A DNA stretch of 64,000 nucleotides from Patescibacteria group bacterium (GTDB lineage: Bacteria > Patescibacteriota > Minisyncoccia > UBA6257 > GWB1-50-10), in contig JAMCYI010000006.1 in NCBI GenBank assembly GCA_023474215.1, positions 1,452-65,451 of the forward strand. The letters run 5' to 3'. Shown piece after piece: positions 9,385 through 61,190 of this stretch. The notes under the pieces are model-generated. The model searched no databases. It saw only the letters and a list, made by a program, of their open reading frames with translations, and was not told the origin of the DNA. Made by a program: the position numbers and the translations under genes. Each line of letters opens with the position of its first letter. Position 1 is the stretch's first letter.

Positions 9385-9402
9385 AGCTCCCTCTTTACTT
9401 TG

Positions 9403-9474
9403 GCCCCCCGTTCTCCTCGAATTTTCGAAGGAGAGCGGGGGGCCTGCAATTTTTGAAGGAGAGCGGGGGGCGGA
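9403..9474. repeat. tandem ~29-nt repeat element 'aattttYgaaggagagcggggggcc' x2 preceded by a complementary arm. Other copies at 29054..29124 and, in reverse orientation, 28..51.
   Basis: Near-identical sequence at three loci. Forms an imperfect hairpin. The ORFs 9368..9625 and 28922..29233 in the track are artefacts of this repeat. Confidence 0.6.
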
Positions 9475-9629
9475 AACTTTGGGGATAAATGAAAACGCCG
9501 GGCATAAAGCCCGACGTTATAAGAAAAAGAGGGGGTGTGGCCCTTTTAGGACCCCTAGGACCCGGCCACGGGGTTTCTTTTCCCAGGGGACATTACAGTA
9601 TACGTTAAATCCGCCCAAAATGTAACAGG

Positions 9630-14224: not shown

Positions 14225-14356
14225 TTTAATTTCAAAATCTTAAATTCTAAATAAATTCCAATGTTCCAAATTCAAAATACTAAACCCGCGCGTTTCGGTC
14301 ATTATGATTTTTGATTTCGGTATTGTTTAGGATTTAGTGCTTAGGATTTAGAGTTT
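14225..14356. repeat. ~130-150-bp AT-rich element with imperfect terminal inverted repeats (ctaaatcctaa / ttaggatttag). Second copy at 59590..59743.
   Basis: The two loci align at roughly 80% identity over more than 100 nt. Palindromic arms visible. Confidence 0.55.
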
Positions 14357-14367
14357 CGACTAAATTT

Positions 14368-15033
14368 ATGACTTCAGAGCAACTAAAAATAAGAAAAGCT
14401 CGCGCGAGGAAAATTGTTGCTACTTTGAAAAAGCTTTTCCCGAAAGCCTCGATCGCCCTCACATACCGCACCAACTGGGAACTTTTGGTTGCCGTCGAAC
14501 TCTCGGCCCAGTGCACGGACAAGAAAGTAAACGAAGTGACAAAGGAGCTTTTCAAGAAATACTGGAAATTGGATGACTACGTGCATGCCAAGCAAAGCGA
14601 ATTCGAACAAGATATTCGGGCGACCGGCTTTTACCGCAATAAAGCGAGGAACATCCTCGCGGCGGCGAAGATCGTGAAAGAAAAATTCCACGGGAAGATC
14701 CCGCGGACCATGGAAGAAATCCTCACCATTCCCGGCGTCGCGCGGAAGACGGCGAACGTCGTCCTCGGGAACGCGTACGGCGTCGTGGAAGGGATCGCCG
14801 TCGACACCCACGTGCGGCGGCTCGCCTTGAAGCTCGGCCTCACCGACCACGACGATCCCGTGAAGATCGAACGGGATCTCATGGAGATCTTCCCGAAGAA
14901 AGACTGGTTCAAGCTCACGTACTGGCTCATTGAATACGGACGGCACGTGTGCCCCGCGCGCCCGCACGATTGCATAAATCATCCATTGACGAAAATTTAT
15001 CCGCCGGCCGCAAACATCTGGCCGAAGCACTAG
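14368..15033 (+). CDS. nth: endonuclease III (HhH-GPD DNA glycosylase)
   Basis: HhH-GPD region 'LTIPGVARKTANVVL' and a C-terminal Cys cluster. Confidence 0.8.
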   Translation: MTSEQLKIRKARARKIVATLKKLFPKASIALTYRTNWELLVAVELSAQCTDKKVNEVTKELFKKYWKLDDYVHAKQSEFEQDIRATGFYRNKARNILAAAKIVKEKFHGKIPRTMEEILTIPGVARKTANVVLGNAYGVVEGIAVDTHVRRLALKLGLTDHDDPVKIERDLMEIFPKKDWFKLTYWLIEYGRHVCPARPHDCINHPLTKIYPPAANIWPKH

Positions 15034-15040
15034 GGGCCCA

Positions 15041-15109
15041 CTGATTACCTCTTTCTCAGGCTGTCTCCGGGGCGACGCCCAAGTCTTAGCCTTCGTAAGA
15101 GGTAATCAG
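15041..15109 (+). terminator. terminator-like element: a conserved 41-nt core 'tctcaggctgtctccggggcgacgcccaagtcttagccttcg' enclosed by a 13-bp helix, then 'gctcgcttttg'
   Basis: Perfect arms ctgattacctctt/aagaggtaatcag. The core recurs at 21688..21729 and, reverse-complemented, at 40534..40574. Confidence 0.55.
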
Positions 15110-15190
15110 CTCGCTTTTGAGAGATTGAAGATAGGGTTTAGGGATCAGGAGCTTTTTACTATACCCCATACCCTATTCCCTGTACCCTCG

Positions 15191-17926: not shown

Positions 17927-20326
17927 TTATTTGCTGAGCTTCAAGATTGTTTTCACCACCGTGTCAGGATTCAACGAAATACTCTCGATCCCCTCCTTCA
18001 TGAGGAACGCGGCGAACTCCGGATAGTCGGACGGCGCTTGGCCGCAAATGCCGATGTACTTTCCGCGTTTTTTGCACGTCCGGATGACGCTTCGGATCAA
18101 GGTTTTCACCGATTCATCGTTCTCGTTCGTGATGCTCCGGATCCGATCGTTCCCGTCGCGGTCGATGCCGACCGTGAGCTGCGTCAAATCGTTCGATCCG
18201 ATCGACATGCCGTCGAAAACGTCGAGGAATTTGTCCGCGAGGACCACGTTCGACGGGATCTCGCACATGACGTAGATCCGCAAGGCCTTGTCCTTTTTCC
18301 TCGAGAGGCCGTTCTTTTCCATGACCTCCACCACCTTCTTCCCTTCGTCGGCGGTCCGGCAGAACGGGATCATCGGCACGACGTTCGTGAGCCCCATTTC
18401 TTCGCGCACTTTTTTCATCGCCTTCACTTCGAGCGCAAAGGCGGGCGCGAACGCCGGATGATAGTACCGCGAAGCGCCGCGCCATCCGATCATCGGATTT
18501 TCTTCCTTCGGTTCATACGCATCGCCCCCGAGAAGCGCCCGATATTCGTTCGTTTTGAAATCGGAAAAGCGGACGATCACGTCCAGCGGATGGAATGCCG
18601 CGGCAATCTTTGCAATGCCGTAAGCCAATTTATCAACGTAAAATTGCTCTTTATTACTCCAACCGCGCGTCTTTTCGTCGATCGCCCGGGCAAGTTTTTT
18701 GTCCTTCTTCGCGATCTTCCCGTATTCGATCAAGGCCATCGGATGGACGCCGACGTCACCCGCAATGATGAATTCTTCGCGCGCAAGGCCGACGCCCTTC
18801 GTCGGCAGGAACGATTTTTCGAACGCCGAATCGGGCGTTGCAATGTTCACCATGATCTTCACCTTCGGCTTTGGCAATCTCCGAACGTCCCGCTCTTCCA
18901 CCTTGAATTTCAACTGGCCCGCAAGAACCAAACCTTCCGTGCCCGTCGTGTCGACGGTTATCACATCTCCCGTTTTCAAAACGCGCGTCGCGTTTTCCGT
19001 CCCCACGACGCACGGGATGCCGAGTTCGCGCGAAACGATCGCGGCATGGCTCGTTCGTCCGCCTTTATTCGTCACGATCGCCGAGGCGATCTTCATGATC
19101 GGCTCCCAATCCGGATCGGTCATATCGGTCACGAGAACCTCGCCCGCTTTGAAACTTCCGATGTTTTTCGCGTTCAAAATGATCCGCGCAGTGCCCGTCG
19201 CGATCTTCGAGCCGACCGAATACCCTTTCGCGAGCACTTTGCCGTTTCCGATCCGTTCGTATTCCTTGAGCTTTGAAAAATCACGGCTTGCCTGCACGGT
19301 CTCGGGGCGCGATTGGACAATAAAGAGCTCACCGCTCCGGCCGTCTTTGGCCCATTCCATATCCATCGGCGTCCATTTGCGGTCCTTCTTCGAATAATGC
19401 TCCTCGATCAAAACGCCCCAGCGGGCGAGTTCCAATACCTCCTTTTCCGAAAGGACGAAGGTTTCTTTTTCTTTTTCGCTCGTCGGAACGATCTTCGTCG
19501 TCTTGATGCCCCGGCCGACCGAATAGATCATCTTCCGGTTTTTCACGCCGAGCTTCCGGTCGATGATCGCCTTTTTTCCCGTCCGAAGGGACGGTTTGAA
19601 AACCAAAAATTCGTCCGGCGTCACCTCCCCTTGCACGATCATTTCCCCAAGCCCCCACGAGCCGTTGATCAAAACGACATTCTTGAACCCCGACTCGGTA
19701 TCGATGCTGAACATGACGCCCGAGCAGCCGAGGTCCGACCGCACCATTTTTTGAACGCCCGCCGAGAGCGCCACTTTCATGTGATCGAATCCCTTGTCCG
19801 CCCGGTACGAGATCGCCCGGTCGGTGAAGAGCGATGCAAAATCCGCTTGGACCGCTTCCAAGAGTTCATCGACGCCCCGGATATTCAAATATGTTTCATG
19901 TTCGCCGGCAAAGCTCGCCCCCGGCAAGTCCTCCGCCGTCGCCGATGACCGAACTGCAACATCCGCATTCCGGCCGTATATCTTTTCAAGCTGGATATAA
20001 TTTTTCACGATCGCCTGCTTCAAGTCGGAAGGCATTTTCGCCGCCCGGATCACTTTCCGAATTTCCTCGCCGCGCTTCGCGAGATCTTTCAGGTTTTTCG
20101 TATCGAGGCCTTTCAGGGCCTTCTTGATGAACTTGTCGAGGCCGGTCTTCTTCATGAAGTGGCGGTAGGCCTCCGCTGTAACAACGAAACCATTCGGTAC
20201 CCGGACCCCCTGCGGTTCGAGATACTTGATCATTTCGCCCAAAGAGGCGTTCTTGCCGCCGACGAGCGGTACATCTTTGATGGTGATGTCCTTGTACCAG
20301 AGGACGAGTTTTTTATTTTTATTCAT
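17927..20326 (-). CDS. ppsA: phosphoenolpyruvate synthase (pyruvate, water dikinase)
   Basis: 800 aa. N-terminal ATP-grasp region 'VPLVGGKNASLGEM', a phospho-His domain 'GGRTSHAAIVSRELGIPCVVG', and a C-terminal PEP-utilising TIM domain. Start trimmed to MNKNKK. Confidence 0.9.
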   Translation of the reverse strand: MNKNKKLVLWYKDITIKDVPLVGGKNASLGEMIKYLEPQGVRVPNGFVVTAEAYRHFMKKTGLDKFIKKALKGLDTKNLKDLAKRGEEIRKVIRAAKMPSDLKQAIVKNYIQLEKIYGRNADVAVRSSATAEDLPGASFAGEHETYLNIRGVDELLEAVQADFASLFTDRAISYRADKGFDHMKVALSAGVQKMVRSDLGCSGVMFSIDTESGFKNVVLINGSWGLGEMIVQGEVTPDEFLVFKPSLRTGKKAIIDRKLGVKNRKMIYSVGRGIKTTKIVPTSEKEKETFVLSEKEVLELARWGVLIEEHYSKKDRKWTPMDMEWAKDGRSGELFIVQSRPETVQASRDFSKLKEYERIGNGKVLAKGYSVGSKIATGTARIILNAKNIGSFKAGEVLVTDMTDPDWEPIMKIASAIVTNKGGRTSHAAIVSRELGIPCVVGTENATRVLKTGDVITVDTTGTEGLVLAGQLKFKVEERDVRRLPKPKVKIMVNIATPDSAFEKSFLPTKGVGLAREEFIIAGDVGVHPMALIEYGKIAKKDKKLARAIDEKTRGWSNKEQFYVDKLAYGIAKIAAAFHPLDVIVRFSDFKTNEYRALLGGDAYEPKEENPMIGWRGASRYYHPAFAPAFALEVKAMKKVREEMGLTNVVPMIPFCRTADEGKKVVEVMEKNGLSRKKDKALRIYVMCEIPSNVVLADKFLDVFDGMSIGSNDLTQLTVGIDRDGNDRIRSITNENDESVKTLIRSVIRTCKKRGKYIGICGQAPSDYPEFAAFLMKEGIESISLNPDTVVKTILKLSK

Positions 20327-21611
20327 AACGCAATGCAATGACGAGGTCCGATACATTCGAACCCGTATCTCCCGTCTCGATGTAATCCCCCACTTTCTCA
20401 AAAAACGCCGCCGAGTCGTTGTTCTCCAAAAATTCACCCGCTTCCAAACCGAGCCCTTCGGTTTTTTCCTTCGTCATTATATCACAGAACGCACCTGCGT
20501 ATCTCCCTTGGTTGTCGTGCCCGTCCGAATCGAATGAAAGGACAAGTGTTTTTTCCGAAATTCCGCCAAGAGCCCCGAGGACCAACTCCTGATTTCTGCC
20601 GCCTCTTCCCGATTTCCTGACGGTCACCGTCGTTTCGCCGCCGTAGAGGCGCGCCGTTTTGGGGGGTAACCCCGCGGTATCGCCTGCTATTTTCCGTCCG
20701 ACATCACGCGCTTCACCGGAGAGTGTCGCCGTTACAACCTCCGCCTTGAAACCGAGAGTATCCGCCTTTTCTTTCATCGCCCCGAGGGCGGTTGCATTGG
20801 AGATAAAAAGGATGTTTTTCACTTTCTCGAAATATTTGTCTTCCTTCGGAGTTTTCAACGGCTCTATTTTCAAACCGGTGCTCTTCTCGAGATCGTACTT
20901 CGCGACGATCGTCTTCGCCTCATCGACCGTCGTCGCGTCTTTCACCGTCGGGCCCGAAGCGATGAACCCGAGATTGTCCCCCGGCACATCCGAAAAAATC
21001 AGGGCGACGGACGATGCCGGATATGCGTATTCCGCCAAACGGCCGCCGCGCGCCAATGACAAATGCTTCCGGAGCGTATTGATCTCCTCGATCGTCGCCC
21101 CTTTCTCGAAGAGAACCTTCAATATCTCAGCCTCCTCGGCACATACCATGTTCTGCGGCTGACACAGGAGCGTCGAACCGCCGCCGGAAATAACGAAAGT
21201 AACGAAATCCTTCTCGGTAAGGGATGACAAGAGCCGGATGATGTCGCTTGTCGCATCGACATTCGCTTCCGTCGGGAAAGGATGCGTGCCGGAATACGCC
21301 TTGATCTTCTTCAAAACCCCCCGGTGCACGTCCAAAACAATGCCGCCGGAGAGCCGATCGCCGAGGACGTTTTCAAGCGCCCTTCCGGCCTCAAGCGAAC
21401 ATTTGCCAACGCCCACGACGAAAATCCGATCGAAATTCCCGACATCGAACGAACGATCGTCGATTTTCAACGTATCGTCTTTCAGCGACACCCGCGACTG
21501 GATCGCTTGCTCGGTATCGATTGCGAACAATCCCGCCTCGACAATTTCCAAGGCGGCTTTCCTCGCCGGCGTCACGGCAATCGCATCAAAATTTTTTATC
21601 TTGCCCCTCAT
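20319..21611 (-). CDS. glycerate 2-kinase, MOFRL family (GckA/TM1585-like)
   Basis: 430 aa, MOFRL-type sequence. Overlaps the ppsA start by 8 nt. Confidence 0.75.
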   Translation of the reverse strand: MRGKIKNFDAIAVTPARKAALEIVEAGLFAIDTEQAIQSRVSLKDDTLKIDDRSFDVGNFDRIFVVGVGKCSLEAGRALENVLGDRLSGGIVLDVHRGVLKKIKAYSGTHPFPTEANVDATSDIIRLLSSLTEKDFVTFVISGGGSTLLCQPQNMVCAEEAEILKVLFEKGATIEEINTLRKHLSLARGGRLAEYAYPASSVALIFSDVPGDNLGFIASGPTVKDATTVDEAKTIVAKYDLEKSTGLKIEPLKTPKEDKYFEKVKNILFISNATALGAMKEKADTLGFKAEVVTATLSGEARDVGRKIAGDTAGLPPKTARLYGGETTVTVRKSGRGGRNQELVLGALGGISEKTLVLSFDSDGHDNQGRYAGAFCDIMTKEKTEGLGLEAGEFLENNDSAAFFEKVGDYIETGDTGSNVSDLVIALRYE

Positions 21612-21673
21612 CGTTCACCATTATAAGACTCGCCGGGCAGAGTGTTAAATCGACCGGTGGATAACCCTCGCTC

Positions 21674-21756
21674 GCCCAAGCACCCCGCTCAGGCTGTCTC
21701 CGGGGCGACGCCCAAGTCTTAGCCTTCGCCGGGGTGCTTGGCTCGCTTTTTTTATT
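21674..21756 (+). terminator. second copy of the conserved-core hairpin element (arms gcccaagcaccccg/cggggtgcttggc) followed by 'tcgctttttttatttt'
   Basis: Core identical to 15053..15093. Arms differ but remain complementary. T-run on the + strand. Confidence 0.55.
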
Positions 21757-21758
21757 TT

Positions 21759-22142
21759 TCATTCCGGAAGCCTGCAGCCGCTCGCCGTACTCAAAGTTTC
21801 GAGCGTTTGCGTCCCCACAAGACGAGCACCGCTCGGTTCGATCCACGTCGGCACCGCATCAACGCCGTCGGCCGTACATTTCTGCGCATTTTCCGAACAT
21901 TCAATATAGTCCACATATTTGAAGGAGTCGCCGAAAAGCTGTTTTTCTGCCTGACAGTGCGGGCAGGAATACAATCCGTACATCGTAAAACCCTTACTCG
22001 CAAGGCATTTTGCGAACGAATCGAGCGAATGCACCGATGAATTACCCGCATTCGGCTTGAGCGCGAAGTATCCCGCGACGCCTACGACGACAACAAGTAC
22101 AACAAAGACAAGTGCATATGATTTTGATTTGTTGAGTTTCAT
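21759..22142 (-). CDS. membrane-anchored thioredoxin-fold protein (CPHC active site)
   Basis: N-terminal TM helix and a 'YSCPHCQ' motif. Adjacent region encodes CcdA. Confidence 0.6.
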   Translation of the reverse strand: MKLNKSKSYALVFVVLVVVVGVAGYFALKPNAGNSSVHSLDSFAKCLASKGFTMYGLYSCPHCQAEKQLFGDSFKYVDYIECSENAQKCTADGVDAVPTWIEPSGARLVGTQTLETLSTASGCRLPE

Positions 22143-29053: not shown

Positions 29054-29124
29054 CCCCCCGTTCTCCTCGAATTTTTGAAGGAGAGCGGGGGGCCTTCAAT
29101 TTTTGAAGGAGAGCGGGGGGCGGA
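29054..29124. repeat. tandem ~29-nt repeat element (same family as 9403..9474)
   Basis: Near-identical sequence. Confidence 0.6.
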
Positions 29125-29141
29125 AGTCGGGGACAGAAAAC

Positions 29142-30362
29142 TCAGGCGATCACGCCGCCGCCGAGGAGTTCACCCTTTTTCGAATAGAAGACGGCCGATT
29201 GGCCCGGCGCGACAAACTTTTGTGGATCATTGAACAAAAGTTTGTAGTATCCGGTATCTGGTATTTTGTATACAGTAGCTGACGACAAAGGCTGTCGGTA
29301 ACGGACACGGGCAAAAACCGGTAGTTGATATTTTGTATTGAGTATTTGGCGAACCTCCGGCGACATGAAATTCACCTGGCGGAGATTCATCTCTTTTTTG
29401 AAAAGTGCCGGATTGTCGTCCCCTTCCGCGACGATGAGCGTGTTCGTTTTCAAATCCTTTCCCGCAACGTAGTACGGTTTATGATCGGGATTTTTTACCT
29501 TCAAATCGACGCCAAGGTGCCGCTGGCCGATGGTATAAAAATAAATCCCTTCGTGCTGACCCACGACATCACCTTCAGTCGTTATGATATCGCCCGGCTT
29601 TTCCGGTAAATACTGTTTTAAAAAATCCTCCAAGTCCACCTGACCCAAGAAACAAATTCCCTGCGAGTCTTTTTTCTCCGCCGTCGGGAGCCCCGCCTTC
29701 CGCGCAATTTCACGCACCTCGGGTTTTGTATGCCCGCCGATCGGAAACAAACAATATTTGAGCTGCTCCGGCGTCAGTGTCCACAAAAAATATGACTGAT
29801 CCTTGTTTTTATCCTTCGCTTCCATCAGAGAATAATTTACGAGCTTCCCCCCGCGTTCCGAGCGGAACGTCTCGGAGGCGCGGGCGGCTTGGTCTCCGGA
29901 GGAGCGAACGCGCCGAGAGTCGAGGCTGCTTTTTTCCGCCGGAGAAAAAAGACGGCCGGTTCCTCGAGAAATGCGGCGGGAAGCGAGTCGTACGTAGTGT
30001 CCGGTTGCGATGTAATCCGCCCCCGCCGCGAGCGCTTTCTCGAGGAACAAGCCGAATTTGATGTCCTTGTTGCACATGACGTCAGGGTTCGGCGTAATGC
30101 CGTCGCGATAGGCGGAAATCATGTAATCCACGACGTTTTCTTTGTATTCCCGCTCCATGTCGAACACATAGAACGGGATACCGAGATGTTCGGCAGCCCG
30201 CCGGGCGTCTTCCGCATCGCGTTCCGCGCAACCATCCACGTTGTACCCGCGGATATAGACACCTGTCACTTCGCAGCCTTGCCTTTTCAGCAAATACGCG
30301 GCAACCGACGAATCCACTCCGCCGGACATTCCAACAAATACTTTATTCTTTGACTTGGCCAT
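29142..30362 (-). CDS. mnmA: tRNA-specific 2-thiouridylase MnmA, with a ~44-aa Arg/Ser-rich insertion
   Basis: PP-loop 'FVGMSGGVDSSV', 'ATGHY', 'KDQSYFL', and a C-terminal barrel. Confidence 0.85.
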   Translation of the reverse strand: MAKSKNKVFVGMSGGVDSSVAAYLLKRQGCEVTGVYIRGYNVDGCAERDAEDARRAAEHLGIPFYVFDMEREYKENVVDYMISAYRDGITPNPDVMCNKDIKFGLFLEKALAAGADYIATGHYVRLASRRISRGTGRLFSPAEKSSLDSRRVRSSGDQAARASETFRSERGGKLVNYSLMEAKDKNKDQSYFLWTLTPEQLKYCLFPIGGHTKPEVREIARKAGLPTAEKKDSQGICFLGQVDLEDFLKQYLPEKPGDIITTEGDVVGQHEGIYFYTIGQRHLGVDLKVKNPDHKPYYVAGKDLKTNTLIVAEGDDNPALFKKEMNLRQVNFMSPEVRQILNTKYQLPVFARVRYRQPLSSATVYKIPDTGYYKLLFNDPQKFVAPGQSAVFYSKKGELLGGGVIA

Positions 30363-30389: not shown

Positions 30390-30956
30390 ATGGCACGGTT
30401 ATCCTACAACGAACTCAAAGTCGGCACAATCTTCGTGAAAGATGGGGCTCCGTACAAGGTCCTCGATTCGGCATTCGTCCGCATGCAACAGCGGAAACCC
30501 GTCATGCAACTCAAGATCGAAAACCTCGTGAGCGGCAAGGTGCAGGAATATGCAGCTCACCAAAACGAGGAATTCGAAGAAGCGGAGATCGAAGTGATGC
30601 CGGTCGTTTTTATTTATCAAAACCGTGGCGAATACTGGTTCAATGAAAAGGGTAATCCGAAAAACCGATTTCAACTGAAGGACGACATTTTGGGACGGGC
30701 GGCCCAATTCTTGAAAGCAAATACGGAACTCACCGCTTATAAATTCGACGGAAAGATCATCAACATCGAACTGCCGATCAAAATGGATCTCAAAGTGACC
30801 GAAGCGCCACCCGCCATCAAGGGCAATACCGCGCAAGGCGGCACCAAAACGGTAACCCTTGAAACCGGCGCAAAAGTGAACGTTCCCCTCTTCGTGGAGG
30901 AAGACGACACCGTGAAGGTCAACACGCAAACCGGCGAGTATATCGAACGGCTTTAA
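30390..30956 (+). CDS. efp: elongation factor P
   Basis: 188 aa with the KPGKG-like region 'RMQQRKPVMQLKIEN' and overall EF-P sequence. Confidence 0.9.
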   Translation: MARLSYNELKVGTIFVKDGAPYKVLDSAFVRMQQRKPVMQLKIENLVSGKVQEYAAHQNEEFEEAEIEVMPVVFIYQNRGEYWFNEKGNPKNRFQLKDDILGRAAQFLKANTELTAYKFDGKIINIELPIKMDLKVTEAPPAIKGNTAQGGTKTVTLETGAKVNVPLFVEEDDTVKVNTQTGEYIERL

Positions 30957-32689
30957 GAACCGAGGTTCTTTAAGGACTCTTTAAGCGACTCGCGGAGCGA
31001 TTCGATGTCGTGATTCCCCTCTTTGGGTCCTTTTGCCGATTTTGTCTCTTCTTTTAAATCCGCAAGTGAAATGGTTCCGGTATCCGGAGGTGTTTCCGGT
31101 GCCTCATCCCCGCCCACAATGGTTTGTTTTCTGGTATTCACGGGTTTTTGCACCGGCGATTGTCGCCTAAAATTATTCAAAAAAGGACGCCTTCGCTCGT
31201 AGTGACCATTATGACTCGCGTGACTCGGCGCAGAAGTCCGTCCGGCAGGATGCATTCCCGACGCTCCTCCTCCCTGATTTTCCTGAAATTCTATGCCGAG
31301 CTTCGCGAGGTCGGAAAATCTCGAGGCGGTCTCCTTTTCTTCGTGCCGATGCTCGAACCTCCGTTCCGTCATCCCTTCCTCCTTGGGAGCCATAACACCA
31401 CTCCATCGGTTTATTTCTTCCTCCACGGCCCACCGCGGACGGGCGTAGATTCTCCGCGACGTTTCGATGATTTTCTCCGCGATTGCCGGGGATGATTCCA
31501 AATTGAACGGCGGCAAGGTTGTCGCCGAGAAAGGACGTGACGTGACGCCATCCACCAAAAGTTTCAAATAGACATGGTAGTTGGGTAGGTTGACGAGATC
31601 TTGCGCCATGAACTCGGGCTCGAATTCTTTTTCCAAAAATTCCGCATCGGCCGCTCCAACCCGAAACGAGACCATGGTGCCGACGTTGCCGAACACGGCA
31701 TCGCGCACCTTCGTCGAAACGTCCGTCACAAGCTGCCCGACGTACTGGTGAGCAAGAATCAAGTCGAGGCGATATTTTCGCGCCTCGGACAAGATGTTCG
31801 CAAACGAGTCGGTGGCAAAATTTTGGAACTCGTCGACATAAAGATAGAAGTCGACGCGTTCGTCTTCCGGGATCCTCACCCGCTCCATGGCCGCAAGCTG
31901 CATCTTCGTGATGAGCATGGATCCCAAGAGTGCCGAGTTGTCTTCCCCAATCCTCCCTTTCGATACGTTCACGAGGAAAATCTTCCCCGTGTTCATAATG
32001 TCGAAGATATCGACGGTACTCTTCGATTGGCCAACGATGTTCCGTACGAGCGCAGTCGAAAGGAATTGGCCGACCTTGTTTTGAATCGGCGCGATGGCTT
32101 CATTCCGGAACTGGTCGCGCCATTCTTCGAACTCGTTCACCCAAAACGCCTTGACGACCGGATCTTTGATGTTGTCCACGATCTTTTGCCGATATTCCTT
32201 GTCGACTAAAATACGCGTGATGCCGAGCAAGGTCGTCCCGGGCGTATCGAGGAGCGCGAGGATGGCGTTGTTCAAAATGTATTCCATTCTCGCCGACCAA
32301 ACGTTCGACCAAATCTTCGTGAAAATGCCCATGAGGCCTGACGCGACCAAGTGCTTGTATTTCGGATCGGGCAGTTCCAAAACATTGAAGCCGATGTGAA
32401 AATCGGTATCGGCCGGATTGAAGTAAATGACGTCCTGCAACCGTTCCTCGGGAATTTTCTCGAGAAGTCCTTCGACGAGTTCGCCGTGAGGGTCGACGAC
32501 GCACAATCCTTCACCGTTCGCGATGTCCTGCACAATCAAGTTATTGAGCATCGCCGTCTTTCCGGTGCCCGTTTTTCCGATGACGTACATGTGCTGACGC
32601 CGGTCGCGGCGCTTGATGCCGAAAAGCTTGTTCGAGTTCCGGAAATCAACTCTCCCGAAGTATGCTACGTCTTTGTCGTTCTCGGCCAT
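30953..32689 (-). CDS. VirD4/TraD/TrwB-like type IV coupling-protein-family P-loop ATPase (paralog of 59733..61190)
   Basis: Walker A 'VIGKTGTGKT', Walker B 'LYVDEFQNF', 'LAHQYVGQL'. The C-terminal region is basic and low-complexity. Confidence 0.6.
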   Translation of the reverse strand: MAENDKDVAYFGRVDFRNSNKLFGIKRRDRRQHMYVIGKTGTGKTAMLNNLIVQDIANGEGLCVVDPHGELVEGLLEKIPEERLQDVIYFNPADTDFHIGFNVLELPDPKYKHLVASGLMGIFTKIWSNVWSARMEYILNNAILALLDTPGTTLLGITRILVDKEYRQKIVDNIKDPVVKAFWVNEFEEWRDQFRNEAIAPIQNKVGQFLSTALVRNIVGQSKSTVDIFDIMNTGKIFLVNVSKGRIGEDNSALLGSMLITKMQLAAMERVRIPEDERVDFYLYVDEFQNFATDSFANILSEARKYRLDLILAHQYVGQLVTDVSTKVRDAVFGNVGTMVSFRVGAADAEFLEKEFEPEFMAQDLVNLPNYHVYLKLLVDGVTSRPFSATTLPPFNLESSPAIAEKIIETSRRIYARPRWAVEEEINRWSGVMAPKEEGMTERRFEHRHEEKETASRFSDLAKLGIEFQENQGGGASGMHPAGRTSAPSHASHNGHYERRRPFLNNFRRQSPVQKPVNTRKQTIVGGDEAPETPPDTGTISLADLKEETKSAKGPKEGNHDIESLRESLKESLKNLGS

Positions 32690-40473: not shown

Positions 40474-40514
40474 ACGTTTATTTTACACTAAATCACCACT
40501 CCGGCCTAAAAGGA

Positions 40515-40598
40515 GCGAGCCAGATGCCTCCGCGAAGGCTAAGACTTGGGCGTCGCCCCGGAGACAGCCTGAGCGGAGGTATCCGGCGAGCGACAAAG
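40515..40598 (-). terminator. third copy of the conserved-core hairpin element (arms cctccgc/gcggagg), reverse orientation, 3' of array member 2, with a 'gctcgctccttttagg' tail on the minus strand
   Basis: Core is an exact reverse complement of the 15053..15093 core. Alternative pairing partner 'gcggagg' lies within the last codons of member 2. Confidence 0.55.
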
Positions 40599-42341
40599 TT
40601 ACACTACCTCCGCGTTATAGCACTCTTCGCAGTAGACCGTTTCTGGCCGGTCGGGAGCGAACGCCGTCTCAAATTCGTTCGGACACTTTCCCGAATGGCC
40701 GTGATTGGACTTATCGCACATGCAAGAGCGACGCCAGAGCTTGAGGGGCGTTCCCTGCTTCAGGCGCTCGTAGTGCCGGCAGTTCGGACAGAGATGCGGA
40801 AGCGGCAAATCCATCCTCCTCAAGAACTGCAACTCCGGAGCGATGATCCTGAACGCGCCCGTGCATTGCTCGCCGCATTTTCCTCCGTGAGGGCATTCAA
40901 TGATCTGATCCAGAATATCGTCTTCTACACCCTTAATATCGTCAGGCAATTCGCTCGCTTTCATTGAAACCGCATAATCTTTCGCCGCCGCGTTTTCCCA
41001 CTGATATTTCTCTTCCGCCGCTCCTTCCGCCGTCAGCGGGAAATACTCCTCAGCGATCGTCTCGTTGTACGCGAAGGGCGAGATCTCGATCGGGAAGAAC
41101 TCTCCGTATTTATATATTCTCCCCTTCTCGTCTGCATACGGCATCTCGTCCATGTGTTTTTTGATCTTCGGGATCAGGGCCTCGTATTCCTCCTTGGAGT
41201 ACTGCTTGTTCAGGATGCAAAAATCCTTTTTCCGCACGCCGACGCACCCGAAAAGATTGGACCCTCCCCGGCAGTAATCCGAATACTCCACGTTCACGAT
41301 ATTCTCGTAGGTATTCGAGGAGAAGAAATTGCGGGAATCGTGATAAGCGACATTGACCCCCTCGTAACTCAGTTCCCCGCCGTCCCCCGCGCCGTGGAGG
41401 TCCATGCAGTCCTTGATCTTGAGTGCCTGCGTGCAATACCGCAGGTTTTCGCATTCATCGATGTTGAACGATTTGAAAATGTTTTTGGAATTGATGATAT
41501 GGTTGCCGCTCACGTTCACAACCTTATTCGTGAACGCAAACCTCTGGATGGAATTCTTCTTCAGTTCGGCATACTCGCCCTTGAGCGACTCGATGGTTTT
41601 CGCACTCCCCAATCCTATCCTTTTCAGCCTTTCTTCGTAATCCTCTTTGGTAAGCTGTTCGCCCCGGAATACATATGATTTGTTTCTCAAATTGGACCCC
41701 ATGAAACAGCTCTTGCAGCCCGCGCAGTTGTACAGAAAATAAGAATCCATGCAGTCGCGGCAATTCTGGAGGTAGGCGGAATGGACCGCATGGTTGGTAT
41801 CCATAGATTCATAGCAAAATTCCGAATCGGTAACGACATTCGAGTCAAAGACGTCGCGATCGTGGAATGCTTTATGGCTGTAAGCGATATTTTCGGAATA
41901 AAAAGTCGAAGGCGCCATATAGACATCTTTCGAAAGCCACGTGAAATTGGAGTAGGGCGCATTCTGATTTTGAAGGCTTTCCAAGGCCAGACGGGGAACC
42001 TCCGCTAAAAGCTCCCGGAATTGCTCGAAGAACGGCTTCGAGAAATCGTAGTCGCGGCCGTACGACATGACGTCCCATTTATCGGAAAACCAGCAGTCGT
42101 AGCAGTGAACTTTAAACGGCCGGTCTCCGGAGTACATCGAGATGATGGATTTGCCGCAAAGATCGCACGTATCCTTGTACAAACTGCGTTCGTTCCGGAA
42201 CGCCATTCGCCGCTGCCGCCGGCATTCCGGGCACCAGGTTGGCGGAGGAACTTCGATCTTCTCGTAGAATGCGAAATCCTCCGGCTCAACCGTGAACTCT
42301 TTTTTGCAATTCTGGCAGGTTCTGGTTTCGGCTTTGGTCAT
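40599..42341 (-). CDS. Cys-rich multi-zinc-ribbon paralog family, member 2 (580 aa)
   Basis: Same architecture. The N-terminus MTKAETRTCQNCKKEF and the 5' flank are shared with member 7. Confidence 0.6.
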   Translation of the reverse strand: MTKAETRTCQNCKKEFTVEPEDFAFYEKIEVPPPTWCPECRRQRRMAFRNERSLYKDTCDLCGKSIISMYSGDRPFKVHCYDCWFSDKWDVMSYGRDYDFSKPFFEQFRELLAEVPRLALESLQNQNAPYSNFTWLSKDVYMAPSTFYSENIAYSHKAFHDRDVFDSNVVTDSEFCYESMDTNHAVHSAYLQNCRDCMDSYFLYNCAGCKSCFMGSNLRNKSYVFRGEQLTKEDYEERLKRIGLGSAKTIESLKGEYAELKKNSIQRFAFTNKVVNVSGNHIINSKNIFKSFNIDECENLRYCTQALKIKDCMDLHGAGDGGELSYEGVNVAYHDSRNFFSSNTYENIVNVEYSDYCRGGSNLFGCVGVRKKDFCILNKQYSKEEYEALIPKIKKHMDEMPYADEKGRIYKYGEFFPIEISPFAYNETIAEEYFPLTAEGAAEEKYQWENAAAKDYAVSMKASELPDDIKGVEDDILDQIIECPHGGKCGEQCTGAFRIIAPELQFLRRMDLPLPHLCPNCRHYERLKQGTPLKLWRRSCMCDKSNHGHSGKCPNEFETAFAPDRPETVYCEECYNAEVV

Positions 42342-57139: not shown

Positions 57140-57262
57140 GAAATTTTACATCAAATATAGGGCTCTCGGCAGTCCTCCGGATTCCCGAGGACCAAAAAAA
57201 GCGAGCGGGGCGCCCATGGTGCCCCGCCCGCGATACCCCCGAGCTGCCTTCGGTGTTCGGGG
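57140..57262 (-). terminator. cluster of three GC hairpins between array members 10 and 9
   Basis: Inverted repeats gcggggc/gccccgc and cccccga/tcggggg seen directly. Confidence 0.4.
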
Positions 57263-59589: not shown

Positions 59590-59743
59590 CAATGCTCAAA
59601 ATCCTAATTTCAAAATCCTAAATCCTAAATAAACCCCCCAATACTCTAAATTCAAAATTCTAAACGCATGTTTTGGTCATTAAAATTTGTATTTCGATAT
59701 TGTTCAGGATTTGGTGCTTAGGATTTAGAATTTTAAACCAGGG
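59590..59743. repeat. second copy of the ~150-bp inverted-repeat AT-rich element (see 14225..14356)
   Basis: Aligns with the first copy at roughly 80% identity. Same orientation on the + strand although the flanking genes are on the opposite strand. Confidence 0.55.
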
Positions 59744-61190
59744 GCTCCGGTGTTTGATCGTTCGCGTCGGCGGGCTTCCCCGTGATAGCTGCCTTTTCTT
59801 GAGCGCTCCGCCAAATGCCGGCTTCTTCCTCGGCGATAAGTTTTTTCGCGGCATCCGCCGAAATGGAATATTTTTCGCGCGAACGTTTGATAATCTCGTC
59901 CTTGAACGAGGGATGGGTCGGCGGCAAAACGCGCAACGTTTCCGCCGAGAATGGATCGTAGGTTTCGCCGTCAATCGTCATTTTGATGTAAATTTGGCCC
60001 ATGCCGAGATTGATCATATCCTTCACGTCAAAAACCGGCGCCATTTCCGGCTTCAGCTTTACCGCATCTTCACCGCCGACACGGAAAATAATGATAGTTC
60101 CGGTATTCCCCAAAACGGCGGCTTGCACCTTCGGCAGCAGCTGTCCGACGTACTGGTGGGCAACGGTAAGGCAAAGGCCGTACTTCCTGGCTTCCGACAA
60201 AAGGTTTTCGAACGTATCGGTCACGAGATTCTGAAACTCATCGACATACAGATAAAAGTCGTTCCGCTCGGCTTGCGGCAAGGTTGCCCGCGCCATACCC
60301 GCTTGCTTAATCTTCGTAATGAACATCGATCCGAAGAAGCTTGAATTTTCTTCGCCGATCTTCCCCTTCGAGAGATTGATAAGGATGATCTTTTTGTCGT
60401 TCATTAATTTCTCGAGGTCGATTTTGTTCTCCTTTTGGCCGAAGATGTTCCGGAGCATCGGATTCGAAAGGAATTGGCCGAGTTTGTTCACCAAAGGAAT
60501 GATGGCTTCCGTATCGAATTTCTCCGACCAGTCGGCGAACTCGATAGCCCAAAAGCGTTTCACCATGTCGTCTTCGATGTACTCCACAACCTTTTGGCGG
60601 TAGTTTCGGTCGGAAAGCATCGAAATCATGCCGCGCATCGTAGCATGTGGATAATCGAGGAGTGCAAGGCATGTGAACCGGAATACGTGCTCCAAGCGGG
60701 GCGTCCAGTTCGCGCCGAATTGTTTTTCCATAACCTCGATCAAACCTTGCGTCAGCTGATGTTTGAACGAAGGATCGATGTTTGCAAGCGGGTTGAATGA
60801 TGCCGGATATTCGATATCAGAGGGGTCGATGATGCACACATCGTCGATACGGTTTTCGGGAATGGACGGGAGGATGTCGTCGATGGTATCGCCGTGCGGA
60901 TCGATCAAGCAAAGACCGTACCCGTATTCAATATCCTGCCTGACCAAAAGTTCCATCAGCTTCGATTTGCCGACGCCGCTTTTGCCGATGATATAGGTAT
61001 GCCGGCGGCGATCGACCCGCTTCAGGCCGAAAATGAATTTTTTTTCCTCGAGCGAAGCGACATAGTTCGTCCGGCCGATGTACGATATCTCGGACGGTGA
61101 GATGTTGCCGTAAACCGGGAGTTGCGGCGGCGGCGGCGCATACTTGATGATCTGTAACCTGGTTTGTCTTTGTTGCGGTTGTTGTGCCAT
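59733..61190 (-). CDS. VirD4/TraD/TrwB-like coupling-protein-family P-loop ATPase (second paralog)
   Basis: Walker A 'IIGKSGVGKS', Walker B 'LYVDEFQNL', 'VAHQYVGQL'. Confidence 0.6.
   Translation of the reverse strand: MAQQPQQRQTRLQIIKYAPPPPQLPVYGNISPSEISYIGRTNYVASLEEKKFIFGLKRVDRRRHTYIIGKSGVGKSKLMELLVRQDIEYGYGLCLIDPHGDTIDDILPSIPENRIDDVCIIDPSDIEYPASFNPLANIDPSFKHQLTQGLIEVMEKQFGANWTPRLEHVFRFTCLALLDYPHATMRGMISMLSDRNYRQKVVEYIEDDMVKRFWAIEFADWSEKFDTEAIIPLVNKLGQFLSNPMLRNIFGQKENKIDLEKLMNDKKIILINLSKGKIGEENSSFFGSMFITKIKQAGMARATLPQAERNDFYLYVDEFQNLVTDTFENLLSEARKYGLCLTVAHQYVGQLLPKVQAAVLGNTGTIIIFRVGGEDAVKLKPEMAPVFDVKDMINLGMGQIYIKMTIDGETYDPFSAETLRVLPPTHPSFKDEIIKRSREKYSISADAAKKLIAEEEAGIWRSAQEKAAITGKPADANDQTPEPLV

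Follow-up and report, generated by a model that had tools for sequence, protein, structure and literature searches.

The window, i.e., the whole 64-kb stretch of DNA analysed here, contains three copies of a real, previously undescribed hairpin repeat family, type A, which is probably a non-autonomous, insertion-competent mobile palindromic element. The repeated unit is the whole hairpin, ~87–95 bp in length. A sequence-only reading of the window had taken the three copies for structured intrinsic terminators and had offered a small mobile or REP-like element as an alternative; it is this alternative that best fits the evidence, i.e., copies that lie in frame inside genes and sites that are empty in relatives.

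Three copies of type A in the window

The 41-nt core CTCAGGCTGTCTCCGGGGCGACGCCCAAGTCTTAGCCTTCG occurs exactly three times in the 64-kb window, with 0 occurrences expected from 100 shuffles of the window. This bears out the earlier report of one exact core at three loci, the coordinates given then being 1–2 nt off. No fourth copy of the core with up to three mismatches is present in the 64-kb window, and a covariance-model (CM) scan of the whole window with the filters off returned the three copies and no others. The copies and the genes beside them are as follows.

14368–15033, + strand: nth (endonuclease III, HhH-GPD), the gene upstream of copy 1
15030–15122, + strand: copy 1, type A; arms 15041–15053 and 15097–15109, core 15055–15095, tail CTCGCTTTT at 15110–15118; 88.6 bits (CM R1)
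20319–21611, − strand: glycerate kinase-like gene (DUF4147/MOFRL), downstream of copy 2
21664–21754, + strand: copy 2, type A; 5′ box GCTCGCC 21670–21676, core 21688–21728, tail GGCTCGC+T7 at 21740–21754; 91.5 bits (CM)
21759–22142, − strand: conserved 127-aa ORF (orf127); its stop codon is right at the T-run end of copy 2, which lies on the other strand
40507–40597, − strand: copy 3, type A; core 40533–40573; 101.3 bits (CM)
40599–42341, − strand: 580-aa Cys-rich paralogue without a Pfam match, the gene preceding copy 3

Each locus folds into one long hairpin (−41 to −53 kcal/mol, z-scores of −3.8 to −4.4 vs. shuffles), and (G)GCTCGC followed by a T-run lies 3′ of all three copies, as had been seen before (tails CTCGCTTTT, GGCTCGCTTTTTTT and GGCTCGCTCCTTTT for copies 1, 2 and 3, respectively). 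The enclosing stems had been described as completely different in sequence and yet each perfectly complementary. Perfect complementarity holds for copy 1, whose 13-bp stem is the only perfect one among the window copies, whereas the stem of copy 2 has one bulged C, and that of copy 3, previously given as 7 bp (cctccgc/gcggagg), folds as 14 bp including an A.C mismatch. Nor do the stems differ completely: copies 2 and 3, at unrelated loci, are 84% identical over 87 nt, and a common consensus, GCTCGCC-N4-ACCYCCG-CTCA-core-TTCG-CGGRGGT-N4-GGCTCGC-Tn, fits all copies. The alignment indicates that the stems of copies 2 and 3 are diverged homologues carrying compensatory changes. The 84% identity of copies 2 and 3 and the stem consensus common to unrelated loci both speak against insertion of the core into pre-existing terminator hairpins, a reading that was rejected.

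Copy 1 starts directly after the TAG stop of nth, and another contig has a copy at the same place after nth (L005:2346-2438). The exact Nth protein is encoded in the MAG GCA_027423645.1 (contig DAIBZB010000001.1), to which the window was assigned on this basis. Copy 3 lies between two tandem ~580-aa paralogues, with ~8 nt from the upstream stop codon to the 5′ box GCTCGCC, and two other contigs have copies with related stems at a comparable place in a paralogue array (L050:12222-12312, L018:2681-2771). Copy 2 lies between two minus-strand genes and is antisense to both, and therefore its hairpin and T-run are on the non-coding strand. All three copies had been placed at gene 3′ ends; this stands for copies 1 and 3, each of which follows a same-strand stop, but not for copy 2. 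By tblastn, relatives of the 127-aa ORF were found at 79% identity in L037 and 51% in L068, and a promoter-like TTAACA-17-TATAAT is present at 21648–21620, between copy 2 and the glycerate kinase-like gene.

Several other features of these neighbourhoods were observed. Beside copy 2, ~44 extra nt (21612–21667) are present relative to the empty site in L037; they include a further CTCGCC box and supply the −35-like TTAACA of the promoter-like site of the glycerate kinase gene, and they may have been left by another copy or represent promoter donation. The paralogues around copy 3 belong to ten tandem genes (38698–58972, −) encoding Cys-rich proteins of ~565–600 aa without a Pfam match, and similar arrays are found in L050, L032 and L018. 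The window also encodes two VirD4/TraG-like type IV coupling-protein homologues (30953–32689, − and 59733–61190, −).

Extent and anatomy of the family

With an exact pattern searched in one genome per species, 28 stretches were obtained, with several copies per MAG; a second anchor, applied to metagenomes, yielded 50 further stretches. The covariance model R1, built from 31 copies, produced 84 matches over the genomic and metagenomic stretches, 72 of them distinct, so that the family has at least 72 distinct members, from Parcubacteria MAGs and from metagenomes. The carrier records are labelled Minisyncoccia, Paceibacterota, Brennerbacteria, Candidatus Saccharibacteria or simply "bacterium", and protein names on two host contigs add Wolfebacteria and Jorgensenbacteria; type A is confined to one clade of Parcubacteria/Paceibacteria. 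The viral contigs, plasmids and phages searched yielded zero copies of type A.

No Rfam 15 family matched over the elements at the gathering threshold in the window and 16 loci. When copy 2, a second hairpin type (type B, see below) and a CTCATCA subtype were ranked by E-value on both strands, the best hits had E = 0.28–0.43 or were irrelevant miRNA models (mir-497); a weak match to the Rfam Transposase-2 model (E = 0.43) falls far short of threshold. Searches of the literature, by core sequence and by palindromic or in-frame CPR repeats as a topic, turned up no account of the repeat.

Read 5′ to 3′ on the top strand, the one used in the sequence-only reading, type A consists of the box GCTCGCC, a variable arm P1 of 12–16 nt, CUCA, P2, the apex, P2′, UUCG, P1′, the box GGCUCGC and a short T-run; in a subfamily, CUCAUCA...UUCUUCG replaces CUCA...UUCG. 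The 41-nt apex is a structured module, not a short unstructured loop of about 3–8 nt. Its near-invariant sequence is GUCUCC-GGGGCGACGCCC-AAGUCUUA, an invariance that is overstated because the search patterns fixed parts of the apex; copies with variant apices were recovered by model-based and protein-based sampling. The most conserved part of the whole element is the internal loop GUCUCC / AAGUCUUA.

The compensatory covariation of the stems, claimed earlier from the three window copies, is confirmed over the 72 distinct copies. Standard pairs fill 93.1% of the pair cells, vs. 72.5% in shuffles and 34–45% with slid partners, and double-sided changes number 430 vs. 133 expected, being present in 20 of the 27 pairs. 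Helices P1 and P2 co-vary strongly. The outer helix P1 varies freely, and P2 occurs as GGCU/AGCC, GGGU/ACCC, GAGU/ACUC and other variants, including a C-G to G-C exchange. In the apical hairpin, one clean compensatory change was found, C-G to U-A (GGGGUGACACCC, L026), as well as two length variants, one shortened (L021) and one with a 19-nt extension (L004).

This architecture, with three stacked helices and two conserved internal loops, resembles that of small ribozymes, and the reverse strand of the subfamily has the strings CUGAUGAG and CGAAGAA. A family of stand-alone sRNA genes or self-cleaving ribozymes, in which the closing helix varies and the core serves catalysis or recognition, is nevertheless very improbable: there is no Rfam family at threshold on either strand, no three-way junction and no conserved promoter apparent upstream, and some copies lie in frame in essential genes, which self-cleavage would destroy. 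The stand-alone sRNA that had been mentioned as a further alternative thus receives no support. Among known motifs, the hammerhead, the twister and the K-turn were rejected, as type A has neither a three-way junction nor an asymmetric bulge and matches no such model, and so was an archaeal-type bulge-helix-bulge intron, as the unpaired bases lie opposite each other and are not offset.

Copies inside housekeeping genes

Type A is found in frame inside mnmA (at two sites), uvrC, recG and a cysteine desulfurase gene, in both orientations and with the Pfam domains intact on either side. There are 19 candidate in-ORF copies, ~15 of them in identified genes and the remainder in unverified open frames. 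In mnmA, the first site follows GHYVR and is occupied in the forward orientation in at least 7 contigs, while the second precedes ARVRYRQ and is occupied forward in L032 and in reverse in L037 and L051. The uvrC site is a linker before RIEGYDIS, where L001 and L020 have the element forward and L048 and L082 have it in reverse. The recG insert is in reverse, between the DEQH and SAT helicase motifs (L008), as is that of the cysteine desulfurase (L039). Overall, the two orientations are about equally common inside genes.

Four of the six reading frames of type A are open. Those mnmA copies that are read in the TAG-bearing frame all possess the P2 variant ACCC or ACUU, by which TAG becomes TAC. 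The kept frame and the avoidance of TAG argue that these copies are translated, and from their sequences the in-ORF copies of type A in general are presumably translated as well. In an AlphaFold model of the Wolfebacteria MnmA P0001 (pLDDT 85.5, pTM 0.84), the insert appears as a loop of low confidence that caps a β-hairpin (130–134 / 158–162), and the model thus predicts that the MnmA insert forms a surface loop. Given its in-frame copies inside housekeeping genes, the behaviour of type A is that of a small mobile element rather than of an ordinary terminator.

The first mnmA site of the window is occupied by another element.

29839–29992, − strand: type B, a larger, Y-shaped hairpin of ~150 nt with CTCGC boxes at both ends, in frame in the window mnmA (29142–30362, −)

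This is the site after GHYVR that holds type A in other genomes. Type B is also present in L032, in L037 and in many of the 120 MnmA homologues described below. By their sequences, types A and B seem to belong to a broader group of hairpin elements in these genomes.

Other repeats are found around mnmA and elsewhere in the window. A separate palindromic repeat family, GGCCCCCCGCTCTCCTTC...GAAGGAGAGCGGGGGGCC, is present at 11–74, 9402–9479 and 29065–29138, the last copy being directly 3′ of the mnmA stop. Short TTAGGG/TTTAGGA-like intergenic repeats, some of them inverted, are present at 14323–14359, 15130–15190 and 59596–59632, and AT-rich periodic sequence like these repeats forms the in-frame insert of the MnmA P0053 (L081).

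Turnover between relatives

The site of copy 2 is empty in L037, where three neighbouring proteins are 79–94% identical and the stop-to-start distance is ~20 nt, and it is also empty in the syntenic relative L068. These comparisons indicate that copy 2 is a lineage-specific gain.

In mnmA, 16 of the 120 closest homologues contain type A, with a patchy distribution. For example, the MnmA P0002 has type A at a site where the 84%-identical P0053 has an unrelated AT-rich insert. Over the same 120 homologues, the first site (GHYVR..KDQSYFL) contains 14 to 105 residues, with many unrelated and mostly palindromic inserts, which is why the tip of the MnmA β-hairpin is regarded as a hot spot for the insertion of hairpin elements. 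Near-identical type A copies are present at both mnmA sites in P0017, and P0103 has copies at both sites too. Decayed copies were found in P0010, P0027, P0043 and P0107.

In UvrC, type A is present in 7 of the 120 closest homologues. The proteins P0121 and P0122 are 85% identical and carry type A in the same linker, forward and of the CUCAUCA subtype in the former, reverse and of the CUCA subtype in the latter; the next UvrC relatives, P0123–P0126, are without type A. Looking at the UvrC linker and the MnmA linker before ARVRYRQ, we note that the UvrC linker behaves like the MnmA insertion hot spot.

The patchy patterns at mnmA, at uvrC and at the site of copy 2 require that copies were repeatedly gained, lost or replaced at a small number of permissive sites. 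Neither a target-site duplication nor a clean insertion boundary emerged from the filled and empty sites, the forward and reverse copies, the paralogue spacers or the pair P0002/P0053. The GCTCGC boxes were rejected as target-site duplications, as the empty sites are without GCTCGC and the uvrC subtype is without the boxes. Among the ten genes adjoining paired copies, all of which are housekeeping genes, no transposase or other candidate enzyme was found.

Orientation and terminator-like use

Gene contexts were scored on ORF calls made in this analysis. Among the 31 copies from genomes, those in tandem contexts are sense in 7 cases and antisense in 2, and in convergent contexts the 5′ end abuts a same-strand stop (0–22 nt) in 8 of 8 clear cases, with the longer spacer on the T-run side. 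In a cruder automatic count over 42 intergenic copies, the 5′ end lies at a same-strand stop in 20, while 9 are flanked by stops on either side, 8 adjoin an opposite-strand stop only and 5 adjoin neither. The T-run has at least three T in 30 of these 42 copies and at least four in 16. The short T-run is part of type A, because it persists even in coding copies.

All three window copies have a stable G+C-rich hairpin followed by a T-run on the same strand. A terminator consensus scan did not call the elements, and only a sub-hairpin at 21728–21742 was detected. An ordinary-looking terminator at 57193–57237 (−), GCGGGCGGGGC...GCCCCGCTCGC + T7, ends in GCTCGC and a T-run like the type A tail. From their arrangement, sense-oriented intergenic copies probably double as intrinsic terminators or 3′-end stabilisers, and it is plausible that such copies are favoured because the hairpin with its U-run would act in this way.

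It may be asked whether type A is instead a host cis-acting RNA, i.e., a dedicated structured terminator or 3′-UTR motif whose apex binds a host protein (for termination efficiency, 3′-end protection or localisation) and whose in-gene copies are accidental. The G-C-closed hairpins of the window copies directly precede the T-run, most intergenic copies begin 0–22 nt 3′ of a same-strand stop, covariation is strong, and the apex is conserved far beyond synonymous-site divergence, all of which speak for it. However, copy 2, the L022 copy and others are antisense to the adjoining genes, the 16 of 42 intergenic copies with at least four T are a minority, reverse-oriented in-ORF copies retain an intact apex, and the presence/absence turnover among close relatives is hard to square with a fixed regulatory site. 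The internal mismatches conserved on the top strand, moreover, are destabilising U.C/C.U, and those of the stems are mostly A.C, not G.U. A host RNA of this kind is therefore unlikely. What stands of the earlier terminator assignment is that a hairpin and T-run after a stop is the commonest arrangement; the orientation of copy 2, the in-frame copies and the T-run counts do not agree with it.

Which strand folds

With each copy folded, single stem mismatches on the top strand are A.C in 41 cases vs. G.T in 17; on the CM alignment, the counts are 87 A.C vs. 50 G.T (binomial p = 0.002), p-values for this comparison being indicative only because the copies are not phylogenetically independent. A.C mismatches of the top strand are G.U/G.T wobbles on the complementary strand, and the bottom strand has the more stable fold in 54 of 70 copies. 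The conserved mismatches differ as well: on the bottom strand they are tandem G.A pairs in a favourable CGAG context (GCGAGC/GCGAGC, CGAA/UGAG), whereas on the top strand they are U.C/C.U. This suggests, weakly to moderately, that it is the folded bottom strand on which selection acts, as single-stranded DNA or antisense RNA. A bottom-strand preference conflicts with a sense RNA hairpin as the selected form, and a folded bottom strand accords better with a copying intermediate than with a sense mRNA hairpin. A link to the replication strand was not supported, the local GC skew being 31:22 (p = 0.27).

Constraint on the apex

The constraint on the apex can be gauged from copies at equivalent positions. 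After nth, the window and L005 have cores identical in 41 of 41 positions and unrelated stems, where the proteins are 88% identical and third codon positions 55% identical. In uvrC, L001 and L020 are identical at 44% of third positions; their cores are identical, and their stems differ by compensatory changes. The stems of copy 3 and of the array copies of L050 and L018 are related and differ by paired changes, TT/AA to CC/GG. Thus, the apex is held at the nucleotide level, as the cores are identical although third codon positions are only 44–55% identical.

Equivalent positions across genomes (after nth, in the paralogue array and in the uvrC of L001/L020) keep an intact apex with neutral sites near saturation. 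Since ordinary selfish repeats should decay, this points to host-level selection, gene conversion or repeated re-insertion. The constancy of the apex could stem from host selection, from conversion, or from selection for mobility together with rapid turnover. A structured apex that does not vary, carried on free stems, points to a putative protein partner.

Such constancy could also be expected of a host DNA-level signal, i.e., a folded or duplex binding site for a chromosome-handling or DNA-uptake system, with every copy under host selection. parS, REP-gyrase sites and uptake sequences also occur inside genes and as terminator-like inverted repeats. Coding and non-coding copies of type A share the same invariant apex whichever way they face relative to transcription, DNA repair genes make up two of the four host genes, and competence proteins are encoded in these genomes (ComEC beside mnmA in L080/L081). 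Yet at ~90 bp with an obligatory hairpin potential, type A is far larger than known duplex-binding signals; its density is low (3 copies per 64 kb), its presence between close relatives is patchy, and there is no replication-strand association (GC skew). We consider such a signal quite unlikely.

A possible mode of propagation and its significance

The preferred reading, a non-autonomous mobile palindromic element, would account for the observations as follows. Type A copies come and go between close relatives, and they are placed in the short intergenic spacers of compact genomes and in a few permissive loops of housekeeping proteins. Intergenic copies would be kept preferentially where the hairpin and U-run follow a stop, so as to serve as portable terminators or 3′-end stabilisers. 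The invariant apex may be the recognition site of a putative enzyme that copies or moves type A, and the stems would need only to pair in order to present it. The bottom strand is probably the one that folds, which would suggest a single-stranded DNA or RNA intermediate.

More tentatively, and on the doubtful side, types A and B could be the cis part of a long-lived, Parcubacteria-specific replicator, in which a putative enzyme (e.g., an HUH-type nuclease) recognises the apex on the folded bottom strand, or else type A could represent a new protein-binding nucleic-acid motif. With a replicator, copies at orthologous sites would be kept by benefit to the host, as terminators, or by enzyme-driven conversion. 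The folded strand with its tandem G.A motifs resembles parvoviral T-shaped ITRs with GCTC repeats, and the relationship would be a symbiosis of the REPIN/RAYT kind in which the logic of conservation is reversed.

CPR/Parcubacteria genomes are tiny and are usually called poor in repeats and mobile DNA, whereas here an active hairpin-repeat family is seen. It supplies terminator-like structures behind genes and repeatedly remodels surface loops of MnmA, UvrC and RecG, and it bears on the persistence of mobile DNA in streamlined genomes. For annotation, type A hairpins should be taken as neither sRNAs nor riboswitches, and the 20–30 extra residues in the host proteins are repeat-derived, which also affects alignments of CPR protein families. 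The covariance model and the motif GUCUCC-GGGGCGACGCCC-AAGUCUUA provide a precise handle for finding an enzyme or a binding protein.

Comparison with known systems

Membership in REP, MITE, attC or an Rfam family fails, because the defining features are absent. We note likenesses as well as differences between type A and each of the following systems.

First, copies 1 and 3 share with intrinsic terminators a G-C-closed, G+C-rich stem, an immediate U-run and a position downstream of a stop. However, type A has a 41-nt invariant, structured "loop" in place of one of 3–8 nt, and it recurs across loci and genomes, within ORFs and in antisense orientation.

Second, REP/BIME and REPIN-RAYT elements are, like type A, palindromes located just after stops or between convergent genes, with proposed roles in termination or in stabilising mRNA 3′ ends. 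REPINs show a long vertical persistence, and a single-strand-specific HUH enzyme such as theirs would fit the strand asymmetry of type A. However, REP sequences are 20–40 nt long, carry a GTAG/CGTC tag, have conserved stems with variable loops and are essentially extragenic, whereas type A is ~90 nt long, ends in GCTCGCC/GGCTCGC, has the inverted pattern of conservation and commonly lies in ORFs. The GTAG/CGTC tag is absent from the type A alignments, and no RAYT gene was found among the ten housekeeping genes adjoining paired copies.

Third, integron attC sites resemble type A in being a folded single-strand hairpin directly after an ORF stop, in a fixed orientation and with a bottom strand that folds better. 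In contrast, attC sites conserve the ends R′′ (RYYYAAC) and R′ (GTTRRRY) around a variable centre, form part of cassette arrays that have an integrase (intI) and are not known to occur in frame within genes. An attC assignment was rejected, as type A has the ends GCTCGCC/GGCTCGC and an invariant centre and is flanked by syntenic housekeeping genes. A MITE derived from a DDE transposon was likewise rejected: the end boxes are direct, not inverted (CTCGC on both sides), and there is no target-site duplication.

Fourth, the fungal mitochondrial GC clusters, double-hairpin elements and "byp" elements are, like type A, tiny G+C-rich hairpins in compact genomes, including coding or permissive sites. 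They differ in being organellar, and byps are skipped by the ribosome, whereas the frame and stop avoidance of type A indicate translation.

Finally, the Rickettsia palindromic elements (RPE), reportedly described by Ogata et al. in 2000, are also short dispersed hairpin repeats that lie between genes and in frame in housekeeping ORFs, form surface-loop inserts and are patchy among relatives. No transposase is known for RPE. Type A differs in belonging to an unrelated host phylum, in its invariant structured apex with freely co-varying stems, in its strong intergenic orientation bias and built-in T-run, and in the existence of a second type, type B, that shares the end boxes. The resemblance between RPE and type A would thus be a functional analogy only.
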